From an uncultured Clostridium sp. (GTDB lineage Bacteria > Bacillota > Clostridia > TANB77 > CAG-508), in NCBI GenBank assembly GCA_900552555.1, contig URZW01000002.1, forward strand, positions 82,002-146,001: 64,000 nt of DNA, given 5' to 3'. The notes under the pieces were generated by a model. That model did no database searches. It saw only the letters and a list, made by a program, of their open reading frames with translations, and had not been told where the DNA came from. The position numbers and the translations under genes were made by a program. Below, piece after piece: positions 1 to 59,316 of this stretch; position 1 is the stretch's first letter, and each line of letters starts with the position of its first letter.

Positions 1-1239
1 TTAATAATAGACGAAGAGCACAGATTTGGTGTAAAAGCAAAAGAAAAAATAAAACAGTACAAATCAAATATAGATGTTTTAACAATGACTGCAACACCAA
101 TACCAAGAACAATGCATATGTCAATAGTTGGAATAAGAGATATGTCAGTAATTTACGAACCACCTCACAACAGAAAACCAGTTCAAACTTATGTATTGGA
201 ATATGACCAAGAGGTTATAAAAGAGGCAATAACAAAAGAACTTGAAAGAGATGGTCAAGTATTTTATATTTATAACAGAGTAGATACAATACAGAAAAAG
301 GCAGACGAAATATCAAGACTTGTACCAGAGGCAACTGTAAGTTATGCACACGGACAAATGACAGGAAATCAAATAGAAGAAATAATGCAAGACTTTATTG
401 AAAAAAAATCGAATGTTTTAGTATGTACAACAATATTAGAATCAGGAATTGATATAGCAAATGCAAACACAATTATAGTAGAACATGCAGACAGAATGGG
501 ACTTGCAGCATTATATCAAATTCGTGGTAGAGTCGGAAGGTCAGACAGGCAAGCATATGCATACATCACATATAGAAAAGACAAAATACTTTCAGAAGAA
601 GCAGACAAGAGACTTAAAGCAATAAAAGAATTCACAGAATTTGGTTCAGGATTCAAAATAGCAATGAGAGACCTAGAAATCAGAGGAGCAGGAAGCATAC
701 TTGGAGAAATACAATCAGGTCACCTAGAACAAGTAGGATATGACACATATTGCACACTACTAGACGAAGTAGTAAAAGAAATGCAAGGTGTAGAGGTAGA
801 GCCAGAAATAGACATACAAATAGACTTAAATGTAACAAGTTATATACCAGATGAATACATACCAGACTCAGCACAAAAAATAGAAGTATATCAAAACATA
901 GCATTATGCAAAAAAGAAGAAGACATCCAAAATGTTGTAGACGAAATCATAGACAGATTTGGAAATATGCCTGCTGAATTAGAAAACTTATTAGATATTG
1001 CAAGAATAAAATTCTTGGCAAAACCATTTGCAATAAGTAAAATTGCAAGTAAAAGAACTGCCGTTGTATTTACTTTTGAACAAAGTAAATATGAAATTGA
1101 TTTACAAAATTTGATTAAAGCATATGGTAATAGAATCAAATTTTCACCAGGTATTAAGACTATGATTACATTAGATATTGGAACAACAAATGAAAGACAA
1201 ATTTTAAGTGATGTAACAGAATTTTTGAAAGGGATTTAG
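1..1239 (+). CDS. mfd: Transcription-repair coupling factor Mfd, C-terminal part (5' end lies outside the window)
   Basis: Translation from base 1 reads LIIDEEHRFGV...TATPIPRT, a helicase C-terminal motif set followed by a TRCF-type C-terminal domain. Stop at 1237-1239. Confidence 0.9.
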   Translation, partial: LIIDEEHRFGVKAKEKIKQYKSNIDVLTMTATPIPRTMHMSIVGIRDMSVIYEPPHNRKPVQTYVLEYDQEVIKEAITKELERDGQVFYIYNRVDTIQKKADEISRLVPEATVSYAHGQMTGNQIEEIMQDFIEKKSNVLVCTTILESGIDIANANTIIVEHADRMGLAALYQIRGRVGRSDRQAYAYITYRKDKILSEEADKRLKAIKEFTEFGSGFKIAMRDLEIRGAGSILGEIQSGHLEQVGYDTYCTLLDEVVKEMQGVEVEPEIDIQIDLNVTSYIPDEYIPDSAQKIEVYQNIALCKKEEDIQNVVDEIIDRFGNMPAELENLLDIARIKFLAKPFAISKIASKRTAVVFTFEQSKYEIDLQNLIKAYGNRIKFSPGIKTMITLDIGTTNERQILSDVTEFLKGI

Positions 1240-1280: not shown

Positions 1281-1350
1281 TTCTTTAAAATTATTTAGGT
1301 AATATTTTCTTACTGAACTGTAACGATATTTTCAAAAATTTGTTAATTAT

Positions 1351-2590: not shown

Positions 2591-3226
2591 ATGATATATT
2601 TCTCCTATAATGATTTCATGGATTGTGAGCAAAATGGAGAAAATAACGGAGTAAAAAGAATTGGAGAAGAAATTGTAAAATATGAAATAAAAAATAGTGA
2701 AAAAACAATAGATAAATCACCAATTATAGAAGTTATAAAAGACAAAAAAGAACTTAAAAATTTTTTAGACGAATTTTTTAATTTAGATAATTTAATAGGG
2801 AATTATGATATTCAATATTGTAACAAAATAAAGGCAAAAACAGATAAAAATACCAACAATGTTATAATTTCCAAGATTCAAAATAAAGAAATTTTTATAG
2901 TTATTAAAGAGATAGAAAAAATTGATATAAACATTGCTTACAAAATGTTTGAACATTCATCAAACCTGATAAAACAGTGGAATCAAAATAAGGGATTACA
3001 AAAGACAAGAAATCCAATTGTAATACCTATAGTTATATATACAGGAAAGCAAAAATGGGAAAACTCAAAAAACAAAAAATACAACAAGATAAATTACATA
3101 GAATATTCAGATAACAAAATAAAATTTTCTTATAATATGCTAAAAATAAACGAATTGGATAACTTAAATTTAAAAAATAAAAAATCAAAAGTTCTAAAAA
3201 CAATTATGAAAATTAAAAATATCTAA
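2591..3226 (+). CDS. Rpn/YhgA-like (Transposase_31, PD-(D/E)XK) family protein, N-terminal nuclease-domain-like and probably truncated
   Basis: IAYKMFEHSS...PIVIPIVIYTGKQKW resembles the RpnA motifs mafRLmrY and PLVVPLLFYHGE. Strong RBS (GAAAGGAGG). Lys/Asn-rich. Confidence 0.4.
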   Translation: MIYFSYNDFMDCEQNGENNGVKRIGEEIVKYEIKNSEKTIDKSPIIEVIKDKKELKNFLDEFFNLDNLIGNYDIQYCNKIKAKTDKNTNNVIISKIQNKEIFIVIKEIEKIDINIAYKMFEHSSNLIKQWNQNKGLQKTRNPIVIPIVIYTGKQKWENSKNKKYNKINYIEYSDNKIKFSYNMLKINELDNLNLKNKKSKVLKTIMKIKNI

Positions 3227-3351
3227 TTAAAAATTAGAAAATTAAATTGTAGGAACAATAAAAAATAAATATTTACGAATTAATTAAAAAATATTGACTT
3301 ATATCCGTATAGGTGATATATTTACAAACAAGGAAAAAGGAGGGAAGGTAG

Positions 3352-6624: not shown

Positions 6625-7545
6625 TTGATGGAAAGGATGAGTGTTATGTTAAAAATTTTAGGATTAAGTTTTATTGGCGCATTAATTTGCACACTTATTA
6701 CGGTAGTAATAGGAGCAATTGCACGGAGAGATTGGGACGATATTATTGATAGGTTAAAATTTAACCTATGTTCTTTTATAATAGAGTTTATATGGATGGA
6801 CCTACTTCTCTATTTTTCTTGCAAACCATTTACATTAATTACTGTATTAATGTGGATGTGGCCGGCAGTACTAGCAAATATTTTAATTAGTGAGATTTTT
6901 TTTGTTGCCAGTAACAGAAACAGTGATTATGTAAGTCATTGTATATTAGTAGTCATATCAGGAATTGCATTACTGGCTTCTCTTTTTAGCCCTGTTCAGA
7001 ATCTGATTTATGTACATGATATGTCAAATACAGATGTATCATACGCAGTCTCATCAGACGAAATACTGGCAAAAGTTGAACTAAAAATCAATAACAGTGA
7101 TTGGAGAGACAAATATGATGTTGATTCTCCTGAAATGAGACAAGTGAAGGGAGAAAATATTGCTGTATATCATATTAAAGATAAACTGGCACAAAGTGCA
7201 GGCAGCAGTACAGAATACATTCCTGGATTTGCTATTCAGAAAGAAAATGAATTACCACAAATAGTATCAAAAAGGATATATTTTGATACATCGTATATCA
7301 ATAAAAGAGATGCATTAAGAACTGTAAGAAGAAAATATCAAACAGTTGTTATTGGAGCACACAAGTTTGATATAGATGATGACTACAATCCATATGAAAT
7401 CTTCGAGTACAGGGAAAATCTTTTTTCCACAAATGGAAAAGACTATGGCATTATTGTGCTTAATTTGATGGATGGAACATCGGAAAAATATCAAGTAGAA
7501 GAAATTCCGGACTGGGTAGATTTTAAAACAACATATCCAAGATAA
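6625..7545 (+). CDS. Hypothetical membrane protein (N-terminal TM segments, C-terminal soluble domain)
   Basis: Long ORF with hydrophobic N-terminus. No recognisable family. Confidence 0.5.
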   Translation: MMERMSVMLKILGLSFIGALICTLITVVIGAIARRDWDDIIDRLKFNLCSFIIEFIWMDLLLYFSCKPFTLITVLMWMWPAVLANILISEIFFVASNRNSDYVSHCILVVISGIALLASLFSPVQNLIYVHDMSNTDVSYAVSSDEILAKVELKINNSDWRDKYDVDSPEMRQVKGENIAVYHIKDKLAQSAGSSTEYIPGFAIQKENELPQIVSKRIYFDTSYINKRDALRTVRRKYQTVVIGAHKFDIDDDYNPYEIFEYRENLFSTNGKDYGIIVLNLMDGTSEKYQVEEIPDWVDFKTTYPR

Positions 7546-9486: not shown

Positions 9487-9638
9487 GTTGAAAAATAATT
9501 ACAATTTTGGGCTACGGCAAATTTTATTTAAAATGCGGTTACATACAAACGTATGTGCCCTTGCTTTTTAAATAAAATTTTTCTTGCCAAAATTTAATTC
9601 TTTTCCAACCTTAAATATAAGAAAGGACAGGTAATTAA

Positions 9639-10526
9639 ATGCAAGACAAAATAATGAAATTTTTAGCATATGATGGAAAGATATCAGTAGTATGCGCAAG
9701 TACAACAGAACTTGTAGAAGAAGCAAGAAAAATACATGATTTAAGCCCAGTAGCAACAGCAGCATTTGGACGTTTACTTACAATTTCAGCAATAATGGGA
9801 AATGAAATGAAAAGTAAAGAAGACAAATTAACAGTTCAAATGAAAGGAAATGGACCACTTGGAACAATGCTTGTAACATCAGACAACTTCCCAATAGTAA
9901 AAGGATATGTAGCAAATCCAGTTGTAGACTTACCATTAAATGATATGGGAAAATTAGATGTAGGCGGAGCAGTTGGAAATGCCGGATTCATAAATGTTAT
10001 AAAAGACATTGGATTGAAAGAACCATATGTTGGAATATGTCCACTAATTTCAGGAGAAATAGCAGAAGACTTTGCAGAATATTTTGCAAAATCAGAGCAA
10101 AAAAATACAGCAGTTGCTTTAGGTGTTCTAGTAGATAAAAACGGAGTTAAATCAGCTGGAGGATATATAATCACACCAATGCCAGATGCAACAGATGAAG
10201 AAATATCAAAAATAGAACAATCAATATTTAAAGCAGGTGCAATTTCAAAAATGTTAGATAAAAATATGACATTATTAGAAATAGCAAAAGCAGTAACAGG
10301 TGATGAAAATGTTCAATTAATCGAAGAAAATATAACACCAGTATATGAATGTGACTGTTCAAAAGAGCACATGGAAGATGGACTTGCAACATTAGATAAA
10401 GATGTTTTAAAAGAAATGATTGAAGAAGATGGAAAAGCCGAATTGGTTTGCCACTTTTGCAATAAAAAATATGAATTTTCTAAGGAAGAATTAGAAGATA
10501 TATTAGAAAAAAATAAAAATAATTAA
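9639..10526 (+). CDS. hslO: Redox-regulated chaperone Hsp33
   Basis: Hsp33 fold with C-terminal zinc centre CDCSKEH...CHFCNKKY. Confidence 0.9.
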   Translation: MQDKIMKFLAYDGKISVVCASTTELVEEARKIHDLSPVATAAFGRLLTISAIMGNEMKSKEDKLTVQMKGNGPLGTMLVTSDNFPIVKGYVANPVVDLPLNDMGKLDVGGAVGNAGFINVIKDIGLKEPYVGICPLISGEIAEDFAEYFAKSEQKNTAVALGVLVDKNGVKSAGGYIITPMPDATDEEISKIEQSIFKAGAISKMLDKNMTLLEIAKAVTGDENVQLIEENITPVYECDCSKEHMEDGLATLDKDVLKEMIEEDGKAELVCHFCNKKYEFSKEELEDILEKNKNN

Positions 10527-13170: not shown

Positions 13171-15675
13171 TTGAAAAGACCAATTTTAGTTGCAATTATA
13201 GGATATATAATAGGTATAATAGTGGGACTATACTTGAATATAAGTATAGTTCCATTTTGTATTTTGATAATTGCAATACATCTAATTTATAAGAAAAAAT
13301 TAAATAAAAAAAGAAAACATCAAAAATTAAAATTATTTTCAATAAAAAGATATTTTAGGTATATCAAGATATTTATTAATTCAAAAGTCATATTATTAAT
13401 AATTATAACATCAATAATTTCAAATACTTTAGTCTTAATTCAAAATCATAAATATGAAAAAATCTATGATGAATTATCAAAAAGAGAAAATTTAACATTA
13501 ACTGGAATAATTATAAGCAATAAAGAAGAGAAACAGTATTACAATAAGTACAAAATTGAAACTAAATTAAAAAATAAAAATTATAGATTTTATATAATGA
13601 CAGATAAAAAATTAAAACTAGAATATGGAGATAAAATACAATTAAATGGAGAGTATAAAAAACCAGAAAAACAAAGGAATTATAAGGGTTTTGATTATTC
13701 AAAGTATTTAAAACAATTAAAAATTTATGGAACCATAAAATGTTCAAAAATTGAACTTATAAAACACAATCAAACAAATAAAATATTTCAAATATCTAAT
13801 CAAATATCAACAAAATTAATAAAAAATACAAAAAACATTTTTGATGAACAAACATCATCAATTTTATTAGGATTAATACTAGGATATAAAACGGACATAG
13901 ATGAAAATACACAGGAAAATTTTAGAAACGCCAGTATGGCACATATTTTAGCTGTTTCTGGAATGCACATTGCTTATGTCATTCTAGGAATAAAAATATT
14001 ATTCAGTAGACTACTTGGAAAAAAGAATACATATATTTTCAGTATTTTTATATTAATATTTTATATGTTTATAACAAATTTTTCTCCATCTATTACAAGA
14101 GCAGGAATTATGGGAATTTTAATGTTAGTGTCAAAAATAATATATACCAAAAATAATACATACACATCAATGGCAATATCATTATTTTTTATTTTGATAT
14201 ATAATCCATTTTTAATTTTAAATGCGGGACTGCAATTGTCATATGGTGGTGTTATAGGAATAGTTACTTTTAATAAAAATATAACTCAAATTTTATAAAA
14301 CATCAAAATAAAAAATAAAATTTATAAATATAAAATAAAACCAAGAATACAAAAAATTTTAGATAAAATAAAAGAAATTATATCAATTTCTATTTCAGTT
14401 CAATTATTTATACTTCCCATAATAATAGAAAATATGAATACCTTTAATCCATATTTTTTAATATCAAATTTAATTTTAAGTATTGCAATAGGACCAATTG
14501 TAATTATAGGTTTTCTATTTATGATTATTGTATTAATTAATTTCAAAACAGTAGATTTATTTTCAGGAATTATAAAATTAGGAATAAAAATACTAATTTT
14601 TATTTCTAATATAGGAAAACTTCAATTTTCAAAAATTTATATACCAACACCGAGTTTATTTTCAATTATTTTGTATTATTTAATAATAGGTACAATACTG
14701 TATATATATAAAGTTTATTTAGCTAAAAAACCAAATACAACGCAAATAAGGGTAAGAAATTTAATAGCTATTATAAAAATGCTAATAAGAAAAAATAAAC
14801 AAAAAATAAACAAAATATTTATGACAATAATTTTAGTAATTATTGTCATAAATATAATACCAAAAAATTTAAAGATTTACTTTATAGATGTGGGACAAGG
14901 TGATTCAACATTAATAGTAACACCAAAAAATAAAACAATTTTGATAGATGGGGGAGGGAGTAAAGATTATGATGTTGGAAAAAATACATTATTACCATAT
15001 TTATTAGACAGAGGTTATAATTCAATAGATTATGTGATTGCTAGTCATTTTGATAATGACCATATTGGGCGGTTTATTATATGTATTGCAAGAAATAAAA
15101 GTAAAAAATATAATAATAGGAAAGCAATATAAATCAAGTGAAAATTATAAAAAATTTCTGAAAATAGTAAAAGAAAAAAATATAAAAGTTAAAATAGTTG
15201 AAGCAGGACAAAGAATAAATATAGAAAACAACCTGTATTTTGATGTTTTGTGGCCAAGTCGGAAGTAATATGATTTCTGAAAATGCTATTAATAATAATT
15301 CTTTAGTGTGCAAACTTATATTTAAAAAATTTTCTATGTTATTTACTGGTGATATTGAAGAAGTAGCAGAAAAAGCAATTTTGGATAAATATGGAAATGC
15401 AGGTAACCAGCTTTTTAATGCTACTGTTTTAAAAGTTGCACATCATCGGTTCTAAAACTTCGTCGACAAAAGAGTTTTTAAATGCAGTAAAACCGAAATA
15501 TGCTGTAATTGGGGTAGGTGAAAACAATAAATTTGGACATCCATCAGATAGTACAATTCAGAATTTAATTGATATTAAAGTTAAAATTTATAGAACAGAT
15601 GAAATGGGAGAAATTATTTTAAAGACAAATGGGAAGGAAAAAATAAAAGTAGGTATTAATAATAATACAAAATAG
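13171..15675 (+). pseudogene. comEC: DNA internalisation competence protein ComEC/Rec2, broken by one in-frame ochre stop (14296-14298) and three frameshifts (~15085, ~15255, ~15445)
   Basis: Five consecutive ORFs in frames 1,1,2,0,1 carry the ComEC competence domain (AHILAVSGMHIAYV) and the metallo-beta-lactamase domain (FIDVGQGDS, ASHFDNDHIGG, LWPS, LFTGDIE, LKVAHHGS). Confidence 0.8.
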
Positions 15676-15683
15676 AAAAAGCG

Positions 15684-15890
15684 AAAATAATTATTTAAAT
15701 ACCTGTGAATTATATTTTTCATATTTTTCTCGGGTTCCCGACATAACGTTAACAAATTCTAATGTAAATACTCAAACAATACCCGAATACAGGACCCTTT
15801 TGAGTATTTACTTAAGAATTTGTAACACTATTTTGGTCACATTCGAAATATATTCAAAATATAATTCACAGGTATTTAAATAATTATTTT
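15684..15890. mobile_element. MITE-like element (~207 bp) with ~32-bp perfect terminal inverted repeats (AAAATAATTATTTAAATACCTGTGAATTATAT). The whole element is an imperfect long hairpin
   Basis: Terminal inverted repeats read directly. About 90% identical, in inverted orientation, to 25018-25197. Confidence 0.75.
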
Positions 15891-15976: not shown

Positions 15977-16582
15977 ATGAAAAAAATATGGATAATTTTA
16001 CTAAGCATTGCAATTATAATTATAGGTATTGGTCTAGGAATTTTTATTTATAACAACAATAAAAATACGAATAAACAAAGCAGTATAGTAGAAAATGAAA
16101 TAAACATTGTATCAGAAAAAGTAACAGACGAATGCACAGAAGAATATCAAAATAATGAAGAAATAGAAACAAATTCCCAAGAAGAAAAAATATCACCGAA
16201 TTGTCTGTTAATATTAAAGAAGTATTTTGAAGAGTGTAATCATACAATAAAAGAATATCTTGATGTTCCACAAGAACTAGTTAATGGAACAGAAGAGGAT
16301 TTAAAGAAAGAATATCCATATTGGCAAATAGAAAAATATTCAAGTAATGAAATAATTTTATATAAAGAATTTAACAGTAATTGTGGTCAGCATTTTGTGT
16401 TAAAAGAAGATGAAGGAAAAATTACTGTTTATAAAATAAATGAGAATAATGAAGAAGAGGTATATGAAAAAACTGAGATTTCAGTTGAGTATTTGTCTGA
16501 AACTGATAAAAATAAAATTCGTGAGGGCATTAAAGTTAATGGAATAGAAGAGCTTAATCAATTACTTGAAGATTTTGAATAA
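15977..16582 (+). CDS. Hypothetical protein with an N-terminal TM anchor
   Basis: RBS GGAGGAAATCAT. No recognisable family. Confidence 0.5.
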   Translation: MKKIWIILLSIAIIIIGIGLGIFIYNNNKNTNKQSSIVENEINIVSEKVTDECTEEYQNNEEIETNSQEEKISPNCLLILKKYFEECNHTIKEYLDVPQELVNGTEEDLKKEYPYWQIEKYSSNEIILYKEFNSNCGQHFVLKEDEGKITVYKINENNEEEVYEKTEISVEYLSETDKNKIREGIKVNGIEELNQLLEDFE

Positions 16583-16602
16583 GAATAATATTATATTAAT
16601 TT

Positions 16603-16640
16603 AAAAATGTGTAATATCTGTTTGATATTACACATTTTTA
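16603..16640. terminator. Bidirectional Rho-independent terminator between convergent genes (AAAATGTGTAATATC...GATATTACACATTTTT)
   Basis: 15-bp perfect stem flanked by A-run and T-run. Confidence 0.75.
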
Positions 16641-16653
16641 AATTAATAAATTT

Positions 16654-17259
16654 TTATTTTTTCTTAAAACTCCATTTATCTTTAACCACAACATTTTTAG
16701 TTTCTTTATTCAAATCGCTTTTATCAATAAAACCACCTTGATACAAGCATTTGACATACATAACAAGAGAAAAAACAGTACAAACTAAAGCACAACAATA
16801 AATGCCTAAATCTAAATATTCCCAAATTCCAGTAAGAGCAAGTTGTTTAATAAATAATGTAACAACAATCGCTAAATAAAACAAAACAGTTGCTAATTTA
16901 CCATACCATTTACTATAAACAACAACATCTTTTCCATAAAGGAAAGAAGCACCAACAACCATTATTAATTCTTTAAGAACAACAATAGCTAAAATCCATA
17001 CAGGAATAATTTTTACACTAACTAAAGCAGCAAGTACAGAAATTTGAGTTAACTTATCTGCTAAAGGATCCATAAGCTTTCCAAAATTAGAAACTAAGTT
17101 AAATTTTCTAGCAATAAAACCATCTAAAACATCTGTCAATCCAGAAATAGTAAAAAATATAATTCCTAAAATATAATTTCCATCAAATATGGAATTTAAA
17201 ATAATTGGTATAAATAGAAACCTTATAATTGTTAATATATTTGGTATATGTTTAAACAT
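16654..17259 (-). CDS. pgsA: CDP-diacylglycerol--glycerol-3-phosphate 3-phosphatidyltransferase
   Basis: CDP-alcohol phosphatidyltransferase motif DVLDGFIARKFN...GKLMDPLADK. Confidence 0.85.
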   Translation of the reverse strand: MFKHIPNILTIIRFLFIPIILNSIFDGNYILGIIFFTISGLTDVLDGFIARKFNLVSNFGKLMDPLADKLTQISVLAALVSVKIIPVWILAIVVLKELIMVVGASFLYGKDVVVYSKWYGKLATVLFYLAIVVTLFIKQLALTGIWEYLDLGIYCCALVCTVFSLVMYVKCLYQGGFIDKSDLNKETKNVVVKDKWSFKKK

Positions 17260-17337: not shown

Positions 17338-19713
17338 TTAATTCTTAACATTAAAAGTAAGCTTATCATTTTTAAAATCAACATCAATAGTTTGCCCATC
17401 AACAACTTCAGAACGAAGAATCATATCAGAAATTTCATCTTCAACATATCTTTGAATAGCCCTTCTCAAAGGCCTAGCACCAAACTTAATATTAGTACCT
17501 TTATCCAAAATAAATTTTTTAGCAGAATCAGAAATTTCAAAAGAAATATCCTTATGTTTCAATGCTTTAACTGTATCAGCAAGCATCAAATCAACAATTT
17601 GTAATAACTCTTCTTTATTCAAAGAATTAAATACAATAATCTCATCAACTCTATTTAAAAATTCAGGTCTGAAAGTTTCTTTTAAACTATCCTCAATCTT
17701 AGATTTATCAACAGTTTGTTTTCCAAAACCAATAGAATTGTTATTTAAATTTGACCCAGCATTTGATGTCATAATTATAATTGTATTTGCAAAACTAACA
17801 GTATTACCTTGTGAATCTGTAAGTTTTCCATCATCTAATACTTGTAATAAAATATTGAATACATCTGGATGAGCCTTTTCAATTTCATCCAAAAGGATAA
17901 TTGAGTAAGGTTTTCTCTTAACTTTTTCAGTTAATTGACCGGCTTCATCGTAACCAACATATCCTGGAGGTGCACCTATCAATTTAGCTGTAGAGTGACT
18001 TTCCATATATTCAGACATATCAACTCTTATTATTGAATCTTCTGAACCAAACATTTCATATGCAAGTGATTTTGCAAGTTCTGTTTTACCAACACCTGTA
18101 GGTCCAACAAATATAAATGATGGTGGCCTTTTTTCATTTTGAAGTCCAGCTCTATTTCTTCTAATTGCTCTAGAAACAGCACTTACAGCTTCTTCTTGAC
18201 CAATAATTCTTTTATGAAGATTTGTCTCTAAATTTAACAATTTTTGAGTTTCTGCTTCAGTAATTTTCTTAACAGGAATTTTTGTCCAGTTTTCGATAAC
18301 TGTAGCAATGTCTTGAAGTGTAAGATTTCTAGGCTTCATTTTTTTCTTTAATTTATCAATATCTTCTATTAATTTGCATTCTTGAGTTTTCAAATCTGCA
18401 AGTTTTTGGAATTCTTCGTTAGTTTCTGCTTGGTCAAGTCCCGCTTTTTCTGCTTGAACCTTTTCTAACTCTTTACTTAAAACCTCTAATTTAAATAAAT
18501 CTTTATTTTCCAAGTTGATTCTAGAACAAGCCTCATCTAAAATATCGATAGCTTTATCTGGTAAAAATCTGTCATGAATATATTTTTCAGACATTTCAAC
18601 AGTTTGACGAATAACATCTGTTGATATTTTTACTTTATGATATTCTTCATAATATTTTTTTATACCTTCCAAAATCTTAATTGAATCATCAACATTAGGT
18701 TCTTCAACTAAAACTTGTTGAAATCTTCTTTCTAAAGCAGAATCTTTTTCAATATATTTTCTGTATTCTTTTAAAGTAGTTGTTCCGATTAATTGAATTT
18801 CACCATTAGATAGGGAAGGCTTTAAAATATTTGCAGCATTCATAGAATGTTCACCATCACCTGCACCTATTATATTGTGAATTTCGTCAATAACTAAAAT
18901 GATATTTCCATATTCTTTACACTCATCAATAATACCTTTCATTCTAGACTCAAATTGACCTCTAAATTGAGTTCCAGCAATGACGGCAGTCATATCTAAA
19001 AGATAAACTTCTTTATTTAAAAGTTTTGCAGGAACATTTTGATTAGCAATTTTTATTGCCAAACCTTGAGCTATTGCAGTTTTACCTACACCAGGCTCAC
19101 CTATTAAGCAAGGGTTATTTTTAGAACGTCTATTTAAAATTTGTATAACTCTTTGTATTTCTTTATCTCTACCAATAACAATATCTAATTCATTATTTTT
19201 AGCTTTATTTGTAAGGTTAGTTCCATATGTGTCTAGGTATTTTTTCTTTTTATTTGTTTTTACATTTTTCTTTTTATCTTTTTTTATTTGCTTCTGATCA
19301 TTTTCTTGTTTTTCTGAATTTTCGTCATTTCCATTTTTTTGAGCAAACATGTTTGAAAATATTGAACCTAAAGGAATTGCAGCACCTGCAATTTTTGGTT
19401 TTTCTTCATCCATATCGTCATCATCTTCACCATCTAGGTCACCAAATGTGATAGCTCCATCAATGTTTTCTAGATTTTTTATATCTAAATTTTCAGCAAA
19501 ATCTTTGAATATACTTTCTAATTGTTTATTCATATCTGCAAAATTGATTTTATCTTTTGATAACAAATCTTGTTGTTTTGCTAATACTTCTGTTGCATCT
19601 ATTCCTTTTTTCTTAGCACAGTCATAGCATAAGCCTTCCATTGTGCTTTTTCCATTATCTATTTTTTCATAAAAAAGTATTGCTGGATTTTTCCTACACT
19701 CTGAACATATCAT
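17338..19713 (-). CDS. clpE: ATP-dependent Clp protease ATP-binding subunit ClpE (N-terminal zinc finger, two AAA+ modules)
   Basis: N-terminal CxxC...CxxC (MICSECRK...CYDCAKKKG). Two Walker A sites (GEPGVGKT, GPTGVGKT). Confidence 0.9.
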   Translation of the reverse strand: MICSECRKNPAILFYEKIDNGKSTMEGLCYDCAKKKGIDATEVLAKQQDLLSKDKINFADMNKQLESIFKDFAENLDIKNLENIDGAITFGDLDGEDDDDMDEEKPKIAGAAIPLGSIFSNMFAQKNGNDENSEKQENDQKQIKKDKKKNVKTNKKKKYLDTYGTNLTNKAKNNELDIVIGRDKEIQRVIQILNRRSKNNPCLIGEPGVGKTAIAQGLAIKIANQNVPAKLLNKEVYLLDMTAVIAGTQFRGQFESRMKGIIDECKEYGNIILVIDEIHNIIGAGDGEHSMNAANILKPSLSNGEIQLIGTTTLKEYRKYIEKDSALERRFQQVLVEEPNVDDSIKILEGIKKYYEEYHKVKISTDVIRQTVEMSEKYIHDRFLPDKAIDILDEACSRINLENKDLFKLEVLSKELEKVQAEKAGLDQAETNEEFQKLADLKTQECKLIEDIDKLKKKMKPRNLTLQDIATVIENWTKIPVKKITEAETQKLLNLETNLHKRIIGQEEAVSAVSRAIRRNRAGLQNEKRPPSFIFVGPTGVGKTELAKSLAYEMFGSEDSIIRVDMSEYMESHSTAKLIGAPPGYVGYDEAGQLTEKVKRKPYSIILLDEIEKAHPDVFNILLQVLDDGKLTDSQGNTVSFANTIIIMTSNAGSNLNNNSIGFGKQTVDKSKIEDSLKETFRPEFLNRVDEIIVFNSLNKEELLQIVDLMLADTVKALKHKDISFEISDSAKKFILDKGTNIKFGARPLRRAIQRYVEDEISDMILRSEVVDGQTIDVDFKNDKLTFNVKN

Positions 19714-19931
19714 AACTTTCTAATTCCTCATTTCTTTATTTTTTCAATATTATATATAATAACTCAAATTTAGAAAATAGTCAATATTTTTGTAATATAA
19801 CTAATGCTACATAGTTACTGAATTGTAGCTCCTTATGAATAAAATTTTTCATATTTTTTTAAAATTATATCAAATTTTGTTTTATTATGCTATAATGAGT
19901 ACAAAGATATTACTAAAGAGGAGGTGAAAAG

Positions 19932-20915
19932 ATGAAATTAAAACAAATCTTATTGATAATATTGTGTTTATTATTATTAACAAATACAAGTAATGCAGCA
20001 TTTATACCTGTTAACAAGGAAAATTTAAATAATGCATTACAGAATTTTATTAATTCAGATATAAACCAAAACAATTTAAATGTTAGTTCAGCTAAAGTTG
20101 TATCTGATGATAAAATTTCTTTTAATTTATCAAAAAATGTAAATATAGATGCAACATATAATTTAGATTCAAAGCCTAATATTACAATATCTGTTCCTGT
20201 AAAAAATGGTATGTCATATGATGAATGTCAAGTTCAAACAACACTAGTTTATTTGATACCAGTTACTTTTTATTCGGCAATTGCTAATATTCAGGGAATT
20301 AATTTTAATGATTCATTTGCTTATTATTGTAATATTACTGTATTTTCAGCTTTGGAAAAGTTAAACTCTTCAAAAGGAAAAAAATATACAATTTATGATG
20401 ACAGAGGTTTAGCTGATGGAGTAGTTGTAGATAAAAGTGATTCTGACAGCACTATATATACATCAGAATTTGAAAACAGAGTAATGGATTACATAAATGA
20501 TAACTTTGAAGAAAAAAATACTTTATCTGATTATTCAAATGGATTAAATACTTTCGAATTAACTGTTGAAAAAAAGGATGTTACTGATAATTCGTGTAAT
20601 TTAGTAGCAAATTTAGTTGTAAATCCTAATGCAGATTTTTCTCAATTAAATAATTATGAAAGTGATATAAAGGATTCATTTACTGATGATACAAATAATT
20701 CTTATGAAGATGAAGCTTACCAAGATAATCAGAATACTTTAGAAAATAACGATAATACAGAGGTTATTAATAATGAGGATACAACAAAATCTAAAGGACA
20801 ATTACCTAAGGCAGGAGTACTTTCCAGTGTATTAATTTTACTTATTTTAATATGTATGATTTTTATAATTTTAATATTAAGAAAGCTATTAACCAAATAT
20901 AAAGAAGTAAAATAA
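19932..20915 (+). CDS. Cell-wall-anchored surface protein candidate: signal peptide plus C-terminal LPKAG sorting-signal-like motif, hydrophobic stretch and basic tail
   Basis: C-terminus LPKAGVLSSVLILLILICMIFIILILRKLL. N-terminal signal peptide. Confidence 0.55.
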   Translation: MKLKQILLIILCLLLLTNTSNAAFIPVNKENLNNALQNFINSDINQNNLNVSSAKVVSDDKISFNLSKNVNIDATYNLDSKPNITISVPVKNGMSYDECQVQTTLVYLIPVTFYSAIANIQGINFNDSFAYYCNITVFSALEKLNSSKGKKYTIYDDRGLADGVVVDKSDSDSTIYTSEFENRVMDYINDNFEEKNTLSDYSNGLNTFELTVEKKDVTDNSCNLVANLVVNPNADFSQLNNYESDIKDSFTDDTNNSYEDEAYQDNQNTLENNDNTEVINNEDTTKSKGQLPKAGVLSSVLILLILICMIFIILILRKLLTKYKEVK

Positions 20916-21756: not shown

Positions 21757-21932
21757 TTATATCTAAAACTTTATTTATGTAGAAATATAACAATCTTATG
21801 ATACATAAAATTATTTTAATAAAAAATAATTGACCACAACTTATAAAAAATGTTATACTAAAAAAGAAGAAAAAAAGTTACAGTTCAAGTATTATCACGA
21901 CTGAACTACAAACAAAAAGATAGGAGAAAAAC

Positions 21933-24393: not shown

Positions 24394-24948
24394 ATGAATG
24401 AAAAAATATTAGAGGATATCCAATTAGATATCCGGAAAAACTTTAACAAACACAATAATTTATTTTGGAAAAAAATAGATATTACACACTATAATTGCTA
24501 TATGTATGTGATTTCTAATACCATACCAACTGAAATATTAGACTATTTATCAGACGATCAACCGTTTTTGCGAAGTGTTATTAGTTACAATATGAAATTT
24601 TTCTTTGGTGATATAGGACAAATTTCAGGAAAAGTCAATTTTCATAACACAGAACAATTAAAAGAAGCATTAAAAGCTGACTTGAATGTCTTAGGTTTTG
24701 ATGTAAAAGAGTGCACCTTATCAGAAAAGTTAGATAAGAGATATAAAAGAATAGCATTTTTTTATGACCTAGAGAGATTAGAAAAATATGGACCTCATCA
24801 AAACTTCCATTTTTTAAGGCAACAGGAAAACTTTTGGTTTCACAAAAGAGGCTGGGACGGTCCAATAGAAAAAATAAAAGAGCCTATTGAAGATTTTAAA
24901 GCAGATGGACTTCATTTGGTAGGATATTTCAAAATTCGGTTAAAGTGA
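24394..24948 (+). CDS. Hypothetical protein (184 aa)
   Basis: RBS AAGGAG. No recognisable domain. Confidence 0.45.
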   Translation: MNEKILEDIQLDIRKNFNKHNNLFWKKIDITHYNCYMYVISNTIPTEILDYLSDDQPFLRSVISYNMKFFFGDIGQISGKVNFHNTEQLKEALKADLNVLGFDVKECTLSEKLDKRYKRIAFFYDLERLEKYGPHQNFHFLRQQENFWFHKRGWDGPIEKIKEPIEDFKADGLHLVGYFKIRLK

Positions 24949-25017
24949 AGTAAAAGGACTTGGAAATTTTATAAAATTTCTAAGTCTTTTTATTATGATT
25001 CAATAATAATAATGCTG

Positions 25018-25197
25018 GAATACCTGTGAATTACATTTTGAATATATTTCGAATGCGACCAAAATAGTGTTACAAATTCTTAGGTAACTGCTCTAAAGGA
25101 TCCTGCCTTCGGGTATTGTTAGAGTATTTACATTAGAATTTGTTAACGTTATGTAGGGAGCCTGAGAAAAATATGAAAAATGTAATTCACAGGTGTT
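25018..25197. mobile_element. Second copy of the MITE-like hairpin element (inverted relative to 15684-15890)
   Basis: About 90% identical to the reverse complement of copy 1. TIR ATACCTGTGAATTACATTTT/AAAATGTAATTCACAGGTGT. Confidence 0.75.
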
Positions 25198-25377
25198 TCC
25201 ATTATTATCATTATCTAATTAGGACATCTTTTTTATATTTAAAAAATCTCTTGATTTGAAATAAGAAATTATAGTATAATAAAAAGAAAGAAAATAATGT
25301 AAAAATAAAAAGTACTCATAAAAGAATAATAAGGCATCAAACCAAGTTTGCACATTAGGAAAGGAATGAAATTATAT

Positions 25378-25923: not shown

Positions 25924-26012
25924 AAATATATATCAAAAAATACAGTTCAGTGAAAAAAGTATATATGTATATTACTGAACTGTAGAAAAATATAGAAATG
26001 AAGGAATAACAA

Positions 26013-37064: not shown

Positions 37065-37258
37065 TATTTATTTGCCCCTTTTTATTAATTATATTTTATT
37101 TGAAATTTTATAATACTACATATCTATTATCCTATAAAATGAGGAAAAAAACAAGTATTTTTGGAAAAAAAGTACATAAATAGTTACTATAAAAGAATAA
37201 AAATCTAATAAACAACATATAATATTTAAAATTACATAAGAATAGGAGAGATGTGTTT

Positions 37259-41854: not shown

Positions 41855-42012
41855 AGTATGCAAACTTAAAATATTAACTTCTGTTCTAATATTACTATTA
41901 GTTTTTAAATTAATACTTATGACTTTAAGTAAAAGCCACTAGAGTATCCGCCGAATTTTTCGATAACTCTAGACCTCGTCAACCACATTAAATAGTGGTC
42001 CTGGCGCTTGAA
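41855..42012 (-). ncRNA. glmS ribozyme: glmS ribozyme (GlcN6P-responsive self-cleaving riboswitch) in the glmS 5' UTR
   Basis: Minus strand reads A|AGCGCCAGGACC...GACGAGG-UCUAGAG-UUAUCGAAAAAUUCGGCGGAU-ACUCUAG-UGGC. Conserved core matches the consensus, and P2 shows compensatory base changes. Confidence 0.85.
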
Positions 42013-42117
42013 AAATAACTCCTTTCTTGATATTTTTATGCATCTTTCAATTTTACTTTATTATATTACATCAAAATATATTTTGGTGCAAGTGTTTTTA
42101 ATTATTTTTAAAAAACA

Positions 42118-46017: not shown

Positions 46018-46021
46018 GCAA

Positions 46022-46128
46022 AAGTTGTCAAAAGGGACGCCCCTTTTTGACAACTTTTTATAAAATTTCAAAAGACAACTTTTTTGATAACTTTACTTGT
46101 CAAAAAAGGGCGTCCCTTTTGACAACTT
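46022..46128. repeat. Two family A palindromic repeats (46022-46058 and 46097-46128) between convergent uvrC and the GT39-like gene; probable bidirectional terminators
   Basis: AAGTTGTCAAAAGGGACGCCCCTTTTTGACAACTT and CTTGTCAAAAAAGGGCGTCCCTTTTGACAAC. The second overlaps the minus-strand stop. Confidence 0.7.
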
Positions 46129-47703
46129 TTATTTAGAAACCAAATATATATTATCCATAACAACCTCAGAATTAGGGCCAATTTCAGATTTATAAAGTAA
46201 AGAAATATTCTTAAACTCAGACTCTTCCTTGATTCTATTCAAAATAGCATCATTATCCATATAAGATTTAATAGATAAAATATAAGAATTCTCACCATTT
46301 AAACTATCATCATTGATAACATAATGAAGTTCATCATTATTATTAACATTAATAACTAAAGTTCTATCATAAATCATCATCTCAGGAACACTTTGCATAT
46401 GATTAAAGAAATTATCATAAACATACACAAAAGATTTATCCTTATTTTCTTCAGCAATATCTAAAATATTTTTATAATTCTCATACAAAAATAGTGGCTT
46501 AGAAAATATAAAACCATTTATTACTAAAGCAAGAGAAATTGCAATAAATAAAATATTTTTATATTTAAATTTAATAAATTCATTTAATATAAAGAAAATT
46601 GTTAAAACGACAAAAGGAATAACAGGCATTATGTATCTCAACTCTTGGAAGGATGTCATCCTAACAGCTATAAAATAGTAAAAAATACTTGGTACAATTG
46701 TAACTAAAACAATAAACTTTTCTTTACTCTTTACACATAAAACAACAGTAGCAATTACAAATAAAATTAGTGTAATAACCATTAAAGCAACATTTGAGTT
46801 ATTTATACTAAAAGAAAAAGCAAGATGCTTTAAATATTCAAATACATGTGTAAAATATCCACTATTTTCTAAATTAGTTAATCCCCTATCTGAAAATAAC
46901 AAATGTTTTATACAAGGTACAAATATAAGAATTCCAACAACTGCATAAACAATATGTGAAACAACATATTTAGAAATTGCTTCTTTATCTTTTTTAGTTC
47001 TTATCATTTCAATTAACATTATTGCAAATATGAAAAAAGCATAAATTGCAAAAAAGTATTGTGTTAAAAATCCTAAAACAGTTATAACTCCAAGCTGAAT
47101 TGTAAACTTTTTGTCCATTACAAAATCATTTTTATATAATTTTAAACTCAAATAAAAATATAATAAAATAAATAATGTAAGAAGCATGTACATTCTTTGG
47201 AAAATAACCATAGAAATAGTACCCATTGATAATCCATATAAAATTAAAGCTGGTATTATTAAATTTTCTTTATTTAATAATTTTAAAATCTTAGAAATTA
47301 CCAAACAACTAATTATAAATGCAATTATATTTACAATAAAAGCTGAATAGAAAGAAAATTTTCCACCAAAAAATAATGTTGCAAAATGTACTAGAGTATA
47401 GAAAAATGGAGGATGATTATCATATGCTTGATTTAAATATAATGCTTTAAAGTTCAAAATGTTACTTGGCAATAAACTCAAAGCATTTTGAACGTATTCT
47501 TTTGTTCTCCAAGTTGGGTTATTTGTATTATTATCATAGACAGACAGTACACCATTATCTGGATTTACAGAAGAACATATAGTGTATCCTTCATCCTCAT
47601 GTAATCCAACTTTTTTGGTTTGATAAAAAAATATTATACCAGACATTATTGCAATTAAAACAACCAATAAAATTTTTTTTAATTTTTCCTTATTTTTTAA
47701 CAT
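46129..47703 (-). CDS. Multi-TM GT-C glycosyltransferase (GT39/GT83, PMT/ArnT-like)
   Basis: About 12 TM segments. N-terminal loop LHEDEGYT resembles the DE motif of PMT/ArnT-family enzymes. Confidence 0.5.
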   Translation of the reverse strand: MLKNKEKLKKILLVVLIAIMSGIIFFYQTKKVGLHEDEGYTICSSVNPDNGVLSVYDNNTNNPTWRTKEYVQNALSLLPSNILNFKALYLNQAYDNHPPFFYTLVHFATLFFGGKFSFYSAFIVNIIAFIISCLVISKILKLLNKENLIIPALILYGLSMGTISMVIFQRMYMLLTLFILLYFYLSLKLYKNDFVMDKKFTIQLGVITVLGFLTQYFFAIYAFFIFAIMLIEMIRTKKDKEAISKYVVSHIVYAVVGILIFVPCIKHLLFSDRGLTNLENSGYFTHVFEYLKHLAFSFSINNSNVALMVITLILFVIATVVLCVKSKEKFIVLVTIVPSIFYYFIAVRMTSFQELRYIMPVIPFVVLTIFFILNEFIKFKYKNILFIAISLALVINGFIFSKPLFLYENYKNILDIAEENKDKSFVYVYDNFFNHMQSVPEMMIYDRTLVINVNNNDELHYVINDDSLNGENSYILSIKSYMDNDAILNRIKEESEFKNISLLYKSEIGPNSEVVMDNIYLVSK

Positions 47704-59201: not shown

Positions 59202-59316
59202 AATTTTTTAGAAAAATATGAAAAATATCATTCACATGTATTTAAAGAAAATATATAAATGGAATTTTGAATAGGATTGTTTATAAAATAGCATTATTAG
59301 TAAAGAAAAGGAGTAG

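Follow-up and report, generated by a model that had tools for sequence, protein, structure and literature searches.

Several families of imperfectly palindromic intergenic repeats of 100-200 bp have been described in bacteria, among them the Correia elements of Neisseria, the ERIC (or IRU) sequences of enterobacteria and the RUP elements of S. pneumoniae. These form long hairpins when co-transcribed, may have promoter-like ends and differ in presence or absence between strains, and copies of ERIC have been reported to retain the hairpin through compensatory change. Correia and RUP elements duplicate a TA dinucleotide, and have fixed terminal inverted repeats (TIRs) tied to a known IS family, which for RUP is IS630-Spn1. 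REPINs are doublets of REP sequences moved by RAYT (IS200-like TnpA) transposases. Their arms co-vary, so that the hairpin is retained, and carry a conserved REP motif at their tips; their mobility probably requires a folded single strand, and there is no target-site duplication.

The prokaryotic MITE is defined as an element, typically shorter than 500 bp and containing neither a transposase nor any other gene, with TIRs, flanked by direct repeats in young copies, located at AT-rich intergenic sites and giving stable stem-loop transcripts; it is dispersed in several copies that vary between genomes, and a related autonomous IS supplies the transposase that can act on it in trans (PMC10969869). 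One described example, QMITE2 of Coxiella burnetii, has 7-9-bp direct repeats, a 113-145-bp core and TIRs of 23-29 bp (PMC10969869).

We have studied two long hairpins, copies 1 and 2, in a 64-kb stretch of DNA (termed the window) from an uncultured gut bacterium. The GC content of the window is 26.5%, and proteins identical to those flanking the hairpins are found only on human-gut metagenome contigs. Since the loci examined encode BofC-like, Spo0A, CotJ and BofA proteins, the host is deduced to be an uncultured spore-forming Firmicute. We consider it probable that the two hairpins are members of an AT-rich, non-coding foldback MITE family in an uncultured spore-forming human-gut Clostridia clade of approximately 26.5% GC. 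The features are collected in Table 1.

Table 1. Family members, their flanking repeats and putative relics in the window and at related loci (L numbers). Percentages beside a locus give the identity of its pilin-like or BofC-like protein to that of the window.
Feature	Sequence	Position	Strand	Basis or remark
Possible solo end, CTTACTGAACTGTAAC	window	1309..1324	+	16/16 to canonical right terminus, E 7e-4
Copy 1, 207-bp foldback unit	window	15684..15890	-	perfect 32-bp inverted ends
Left 12-bp palindromic repeat, AAATAATTATTT	window	15685..15696	.	target duplication or internal arm repeat
Copy 1 insert, AAATACCTGTG...CACAGGTATTT, 181 bp	window	15697..15877	-	alignment with L036, L037, L038
Right 12-bp repeat, AAATAATTATTT	window	15878..15889	.	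alignment with L036-L038
97-nt AT-rich hairpin between bofC-like gene and pgsA	window	16573..16669	.	L039 counterpart has 144-nt family core in loop
Candidate target-site duplication, left flank of copy 2, GTCTTTTT	window	24984..24991	.	also T-run of upstream terminator
Copy 2, full-length 234-bp member, arms partly decayed	window	24992..25225	+ (forward)	nhmmer, self-inverted BLAST, length
Conserved asymmetric core of copy 2, TTTTGAAT...TTCGAATGCGACC ... CCTGAGAAAAATATG	window	25035..25175	+	85-92% identity across family members
Candidate target-site duplication, right flank of copy 2, ATCTTTTT	window	25226..25233	.	7/8 match to left
Mini-hairpin resembling outermost termini, TACAGTTCAGT...ACTGAACTGTA	window	25941..25984	.	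possible relic; 13/13, E 0.04, weak alone
Solo right arm in ~60-nt insertion	window	59209..59269	+	short AATTTT repeats flanking; absent in L054, L051
Four copies in 20.5 kb	L039 (pilin-like 81%)	3046-3286, 6861-7094, 9638-9868, 20073-20306		
Direct repeats at 6861-7094	L039	left TATATATA, right TATATATT		7/8
Direct repeats at 20073-20306	L039	left CAATAAAAG, right CAATAAAAG		9/9
Two copies	L040 (pilin-like 81%)	6886-7084, 1-153		1-153 cut by contig end
Divergent subfamily	L032, L033 (BofC-like 88%)	17035-17233		same place as copy 2
Divergent subfamily	L041 (pilin-like 64%)	18976-19179		nested in larger palindrome
Full copies: none	L043, L044 (pilin-like 60%)			

In architecture the family agrees with the definition of prokaryotic MITEs. 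Its copies are small (207, 181 and 234 bp) and contain no ORF, and they have TIRs of 32 bp in copy 1, approximately 60 bp, also perfect, in L039 6861-7094, and 19 bp in copy 2. Flanking direct repeats are present (9/9, 7/8 and 7/8), that of 12 bp at copy 1 being ambiguous and there being none at L039 3046-3286. The copies are dispersed and vary in presence and absence, all lie in AT-rich intergenic DNA, and the predicted stem-loops are stable, with fold z-scores from -8 to -16.6. Among described examples QMITE2 is the best architectural match; likened by description, both are short, gene-less, AT-rich and intergenic, with TIRs and a stable stem-loop. The host phylum differs, however, and in the present family the complementarity runs through the whole element, the arms reaching 45-60 bp or more, variation is greater at the ends than in the core, and a parent IS was not found.

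The two hairpins of about 200 bp had been described in the initial annotation as inverted copies of one element, and this is borne out: copy 2 is 90.5% identical to copy 1 over 190 nt in the opposite orientation (25019-25208), and both fold far better than shuffled sequences. The 12-mer ACCTGTGAATTA occurs four times in the window, where 0.53 occurrences are expected, and solely at the four ends of the two copies. The ends of copy 1, AAAATAATTATTTAAATACCTGTGAATTATAT, are perfect inverted repeats of 32 bp (15684-15715 and 15859-15890), and the complementarity of its halves, from which a long hairpin had been predicted, extends over 84 nt at 77%. As RNA, copy 1 is calculated to fold with -81.4 kcal/mol on the + strand and -95.3 kcal/mol on the - strand, compared with shuffle means of -25.6 and -34.1 (z = -16.6 and -16.1); none of 200 shuffles folds as well. 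The forward orientation of the family, in which the TTCGAATG arm comes first, corresponds to the - strand of copy 1. Neither copy contains an ORF, in keeping with the non-autonomous nature ascribed to them earlier.

Copy 1 follows a broken comEC gene, starting 9 nt past the stop codon of its last fragment, and is separated by 87 nt from a bofC-like gene downstream. The comEC sequence at 13171-15675 is divided into four ORFs (13171-14298, 14434-15132, 15240-15455 and 15436-15675); other strains have a 653-aa ORF together with the same small C-terminal fragments. Because the C-terminus is split in the sister species too, the 3' frameshifts are old, and the strain of the window has one extra break.

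The extent of copy 2 required revision. It had been placed at 25018-25197 with AATACCTGTGAATT taken as the terminus. The nhmmer envelope is 24991-25220 and self-inverted BLAST gives 25002-25212, and the full-length element ends GTTACAG...CTGTAAC, approximately 26 bp further out, giving the bounds in Table 1. Its inverted repeats are perfect over 19 bp, the outer arms being decayed, and its fold z-scores are -8.3 and -10.3. Copy 2 separates a gene of 184 aa, followed by a terminator of its own, from a pilin-like gene whose separate promoter is TTGATT-18-TATAAT. It is an older copy of full length, at a site that is also occupied by family members in sister lineages. In L036, copy 2 has a different right arm; that contig ends inside the repeat and may be chimeric.

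No Pfam domain is encoded by the 184-aa gene (24394-24948). The sister lineages L032, L039 and L043 do not have it at this place, where htrA and the pilin-like gene follow each other. Its sole homologues, with 48-50% identity, adjoin Mob_Pre, TnpV and KilA-N genes (L026) or an IS110 transposase gene (L030), unrelated and mobile contexts that could not serve for a comparison of synteny. The gene has the appearance of an accessory gene that was inserted beside copy 2.

Orthologous loci were taken through homologues of the bofC-like and pilin-like proteins, giving 439 kb of related loci, in which the family was sought by self-inverted BLAST followed by all-against-all BLAST and an nhmmer profile. 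This revealed at least 10 distinct full or near-full copies, at no fewer than six loci in five lineages, with a density in related gut lineages of up to 4-5 copies per 20-27 kb. Both orientations relative to neighboring genes occur across the family; at the site upstream of the pilin-like gene, members are found in the same orientation in three lineages.

Might the two copies have been left simply by a segmental or inverted duplication in the local DNA, rather than being discrete elements? The presence of merely two near-full copies in the 64-kb window would fit such an origin, and two copies contained in a larger duplicated segment was the outcome that the initial annotation had named as contradicting its own reading. 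It is refuted. The similarity between copies 1 and 2 stops at the hairpin boundaries, related copies with different flanks are found at six or more loci in other lineages, and there are insertion polymorphisms and empty sites. The count of two was itself too low, as the window also holds a solo arm and several core-less relics, and relatives carry more copies.

Some observations on members in the related lineages may be added here. The divergent member of L041 is nested inside a palindrome of about 500 nt (approximately 18830-19330), the outer arms of which (GATGTATAAGGGGCTACCTTAGGGGTTATATATCTTTGATATTGTATCC...) are partly present also to the left of the L032 17035 copy. In L043 (9885-9915) and L044 (9898-9928), the sequence ATTTGAATGCTAACAATGAGAAAAAG lies upstream of the pilin-like gene; in it the two motifs that bound the core, TTTGAATGC and GAGAAAAA, are separated by a few bases, and it may be the footprint of a family member without its interior.

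Three copies (copy 2, L039 6861-7094 and L039 20073-20306) are exactly 234 bp long when bounded by their duplications, and the termini, GTTACAG...CTGTAAC with variants GTACATAG and ATTATGA, are homologous among them. The cleanest insertion is L039 20073-20306. Its target site is non-palindromic, and is single and hairpin-free in the window (approximately 37189-37195), in L043 and in L044. Target-site duplications, which had been proposed as a check on the element, were found, with a perfect match over 9 bp at this locus. The elements insert into AT-rich intergenic DNA with a direct target duplication of 8-9 bp, and they are present or absent between strains and species. The initial reading of the hairpins as a MITE is upheld by these discrete ends, the presence and absence between strains, the duplications and the clean empty sites in relatives. 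Because the duplication is of 8-9 bp, a staggered cut of the DDE type fits, and a transposase encoded elsewhere could move the elements in trans.

A contrasting explanation requires no transposase. The elements might spread by template switching or gene conversion between palindromes that fills or empties hairpins, with fold-back homogenizing the arms. Such a process would be consistent with the location of copy 1 exactly at the center of a 24-nt palindrome, with the many core-less foldback relics, and with arms that are near-identical within a copy and 50-70% alike between copies. The copy at L039 3046-3286 also points in this direction: its core lies in the loop of a hairpin that exists core-less in the window (16573-16669), direct repeats are absent from the junctions, and TGTTT and AAACA are inverted there. 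A rearrangement breakpoint between L040 and L039 lies in an element, as this explanation would allow. Nevertheless, we regard transposase-free spread as quite unlikely. The insertion at L039 20073-20306 was into a non-palindromic site that is empty in three lineages, with a clean 9-bp direct duplication, and the three 234-bp copies have homologous termini abutting direct repeats of 8-9 bp. Constant length and clean direct duplications are hallmarks of enzymatic cut-and-paste or copy-and-paste transposition, and therefore argue against it. Several findings count against a MITE moved by a transposase, among them the junctions of L039 3046-3286 without direct repeats. The ends vary more between copies than the interior, the opposite of what is predicted for a transposase that reads the ends, and the copy number looks low in the species of the window itself, the copy-2 locus being the only one detected in a metagenome scan.

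The origin of copy 1 can be examined by comparison with conspecific strains. In L036-L038, where the bofC-like protein is 95% identical, exactly 193 bp are missing at copy 1, and the flanks differ by a single base. L055 and L056 (bofC-like protein 97% identical) have the same short spacing of 329 bp upstream of the bofC-like gene. The 193-bp indel comprises the 181-bp insert plus one 12-bp repeat: the empty allele reads GCGA-AAATAATTATTT-TCAC, and the long allele has AAATAATTATTT on each side of the insert. The short allele is a 24-nt palindrome (AAGCGAAAATAA|TTATTTTCACTT), and the 12-mer is itself palindromic. The claim of perfect 32-bp TIRs for copy 1 can be kept in part. The ends are perfect reverse complements, but the outer 12-13 bp are probably the duplicated palindromic site and not sequence of the element.

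We favor the view, without regarding the matter as settled, that copy 1 was inserted at the center of a small palindrome and the site duplicated; the palindrome may itself be an older relic. The less likely course of events is that the empty allele arose by slippage deletion between the two 12-mers; because the empty allele and the 12-bp repeat are palindromic, such a deletion could mimic an empty site. Recent gain is favored because only the sub-lineage of the window has the long allele and because the arms are perfect over 37 nt. On this basis copy 1 would be young, its arms still perfect, and would represent an inner version of 181 bp centered in a small palindrome. Since the copies differ by about 10% although the arms of copy 1 are perfect, copy 1 was not derived from copy 2, and therefore a closer source copy must exist outside the window.

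The elements decay by internal deletion, leaving solo arms and core-less mini-hairpins. A solo arm in the window is that at 59210-59243, which is identical to the right arm of L039 6861-7094 at 34/34 positions. The hairpin at 16573-16669, located between the bofC-like gene and pgsA, has probably lost its core; alternatively it was a pre-existing hairpin that served as a target. The mini-hairpin at 25941-25984 is absent from that site in four related lineages. Two further stretches (19812-19862 and 21882-21912) were weak candidates for relics, and are not claimed.

The full-length unit of 234 bp has three layers, namely variable outer arms of approximately 45-60 bp ending GTTACAG...CTGTAAC, an inner stem, and a conserved asymmetric core of about 140 nt. 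The core has 85-92% identity among most copies. At mirror-image positions of the core the two arms have different conserved sequences that do not pair, TTCGAATGYGACC... in the one and ...GRRCC.GAGAAAAATATG in the other. The asymmetric internal loops TTCGAATGYGA / GARCC.GAGAAAA are kept even in the divergent subfamily of L032 and L041, while changes in the stems are compensated. Beyond the core, arms taken from different copies share only about 50-70% of their sequence, while the two arms within any copy are nearly identical.

The pairing was analyzed in an alignment of nine sequences. Standard pairs occupy 94.8% of cells, compared with 83.2% in shuffled alignments and 33-50% when the partners are slid. 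Both sides have changed in 27 of 56 pairs, against 11 ± 2.2 in shuffled and at most 7 in slid alignments. The conclusion that emerges is that complementarity is actively maintained, at a level that the test leaves unspecified.

Does the conserved core then function as a structured nucleic acid, with mobility secondary and the copies kept by host or element for that function? It might be an RNA hairpin, be it an sRNA, a substrate of RNase III or a decoy resembling 6S, or a hairpin of single-stranded DNA such as a promoter or origin. The compensated stems and the retention of the internal loops even in the divergent subfamily would be expected of such a function, as would the pairing statistics, and the occupancy of the site upstream of the pilin-like gene in one orientation in three lineages is consistent with it. 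In addition, every copy has one strand that gives the better fold, and in the core G.U pairs outnumber A.C pairs. The G.U excess of the forward strand is, however, located at shared ancestral positions of the core, and the copy-specific outer arms have no strand bias (approximately 12 compared with 11); we have therefore rejected it as independent evidence for an RNA. Moreover, the same covariation would arise in a DNA palindrome if one arm were copied from the other. No family of Rfam 15 matched the element, 6S included, whether in the window at the gathering threshold, for copy 1 at E-values up to 10, or in L032 and L041; the matches to copy 1 at E up to 10 were merely to generic hairpins (miRNA precursors), far below thresholds. 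Copies come and go between strains and lie in both orientations relative to neighboring genes, and the inner stem of copy 2 has uncompensated changes (GTAACTGCTCT vs AGAGTATTTAC), from which it follows that older copies decay like neutral DNA. We consider a primary function of this kind unlikely. The matched arms are best explained by an event during the copying or repair of a copy.

Promoter-like sequences are present at the ends of both copies, with TTCACA-16/17-TATTAT/CATTAT directed outward at either end of copy 2; in copy 1 the right end has a hybrid TTTAAA-18-TATAAT. In the scans for promoters and terminators, promoter-like matches were no commoner than in shuffled sequence, which also weighs against the functional core, and no terminators were found.

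A related idea retains mobility but places recognition in the folded structure, in place of an enzyme that reads the ends. The core of about 140 nt would be recognized, or would function, in folded single-stranded DNA or RNA, and the arms would need only to pair. Such a structure-guided mobile hairpin would explain the variable, self-complementary arms, the movement of short inner versions alone, and the location of some copies exactly in the centers or loops of existing hairpins. We rate it as rather unlikely; if true, it would be a kind of element not yet described in Firmicutes. Under the preferred reading of a foldback MITE family, the arms could be kept matched by a step templated on the hairpin, either conversion of one arm by the other or an intermediate of folded single strand; selection acting on the hairpin could do the same. 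For the host the elements are probably neutral, although they may supply read-out promoters and, where they are co-transcribed, long hairpins of RNA.

The initial annotation had suggested a search for an IS with matching inverted repeats, and this yielded no partner, which counts against the MITE reading: neither the window nor the 439 kb of related loci contained an autonomous IS with such ends, and searches of plasmids, phages, viral contigs and GTDB representative genomes were likewise negative. A search of the GTDB representatives for both ends with a gap gave no matches, and the 21-mer end pattern found only a 26-nt relic in another Clostridia MAG (L022) and chance matches. Apart from one chance match, the metagenome scan gave just the copy-2 locus, from another sample, and plasmids, phages and viral contigs gave no matches to the family. 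A possible resemblance of the family ends to those of IS256 or IS66 is not claimed.

These properties set the family apart from the other groups of small repeats. Its target duplications are of 8-9 bp and its arms vary in sequence from copy to copy, whereas Correia and RUP have the TA duplication and fixed TIRs. Like REPINs it is hairpin-forming and non-autonomous with co-varying arms, but the direct duplications of 8-9 bp separate it from them, and no RAYT gene was noticed at the loci examined. Nor does it correspond to the PATEs derived from IS200/IS605, which have subterminal hairpins without TIRs or duplication; here there are long TIRs and duplications. The inverted repeat running through the whole element, the greater similarity of arms within a copy and the frequent internal deletions recall the foldback elements and hairpin MITEs of eukaryotes, which belong to a different domain of life; there is no evidence of a shared ancestry or enzyme.

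The analysis adds a MITE or foldback family for a poorly known clade of uncultured gut Clostridia, and overturns nothing current. The combination of a conserved core with variable but matched arms poses a small puzzle about the copying of foldback elements, the only feature that a specialist might follow. The elements mark strain-level differences, and place long hairpins and possible outward promoters beside the bofC-like and pilin-like genes. They also break short-read assemblies. The Logan short-read contigs L008-L011 and L015-L019 end inside elements, in copy 1 at 29 nt from its right end and in copy 2 after 46 nt, and it is because contigs end inside them that we conclude that the hairpins fragment de Bruijn assemblies.

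An element is also located at the rearrangement breakpoint between L039 and L040. The contigs concerned (element at L039 6854-7101 and L040 6886-7084) encode the same pilin-like protein, with different genes to the left of the element (a ClpB-like gene vs a G5/SH3/glucosaminidase gene). In L040 the two ends of the copy do not match (ACCTGTAAATGAT vs ATCATTCACATGT). This suggests a rearrangement by recombination between two copies, with the breakpoint in the element.

Other hairpins were observed in these genomes. A second, unrelated family of long hairpins is built of repeated AACCAATGGGGACGTTG units (L032 10613-10811, L036 5974-6124 and L022 1667-1767), with arms of up to 83 nt at 99% complementarity. 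These lie in the gap between the bofC-like gene and pgsA, the site of the 16573-16669 hairpin in the window. Hairpins of the TTGTCAAAAGGGACGCCCCTTTTGACAA type occur in inverted pairs in the window (46020-46130 and 1399-1430) and in L041 (8109-8218). Since the motif GGGACG recurs in several intergenic hairpins of these genomes, they may be a third repeat family or shared terminators. An imperfect palindrome of 123 nt at 9487-9609, equivalent to L032 3528-3650, lies between a glycosyltransferase/rubredoxin gene and hsp33. It has no Rfam match at the gathering threshold, and is 99% identical between the window and the sister species, although the BofC-like proteins are 88% identical; it may be a conserved regulatory or RNA element. 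The sole Rfam match in the window is a full-length glmS ribozyme (RF00234) at 41862-42019 on the - strand, with 88.3 bits and E = 5e-19.
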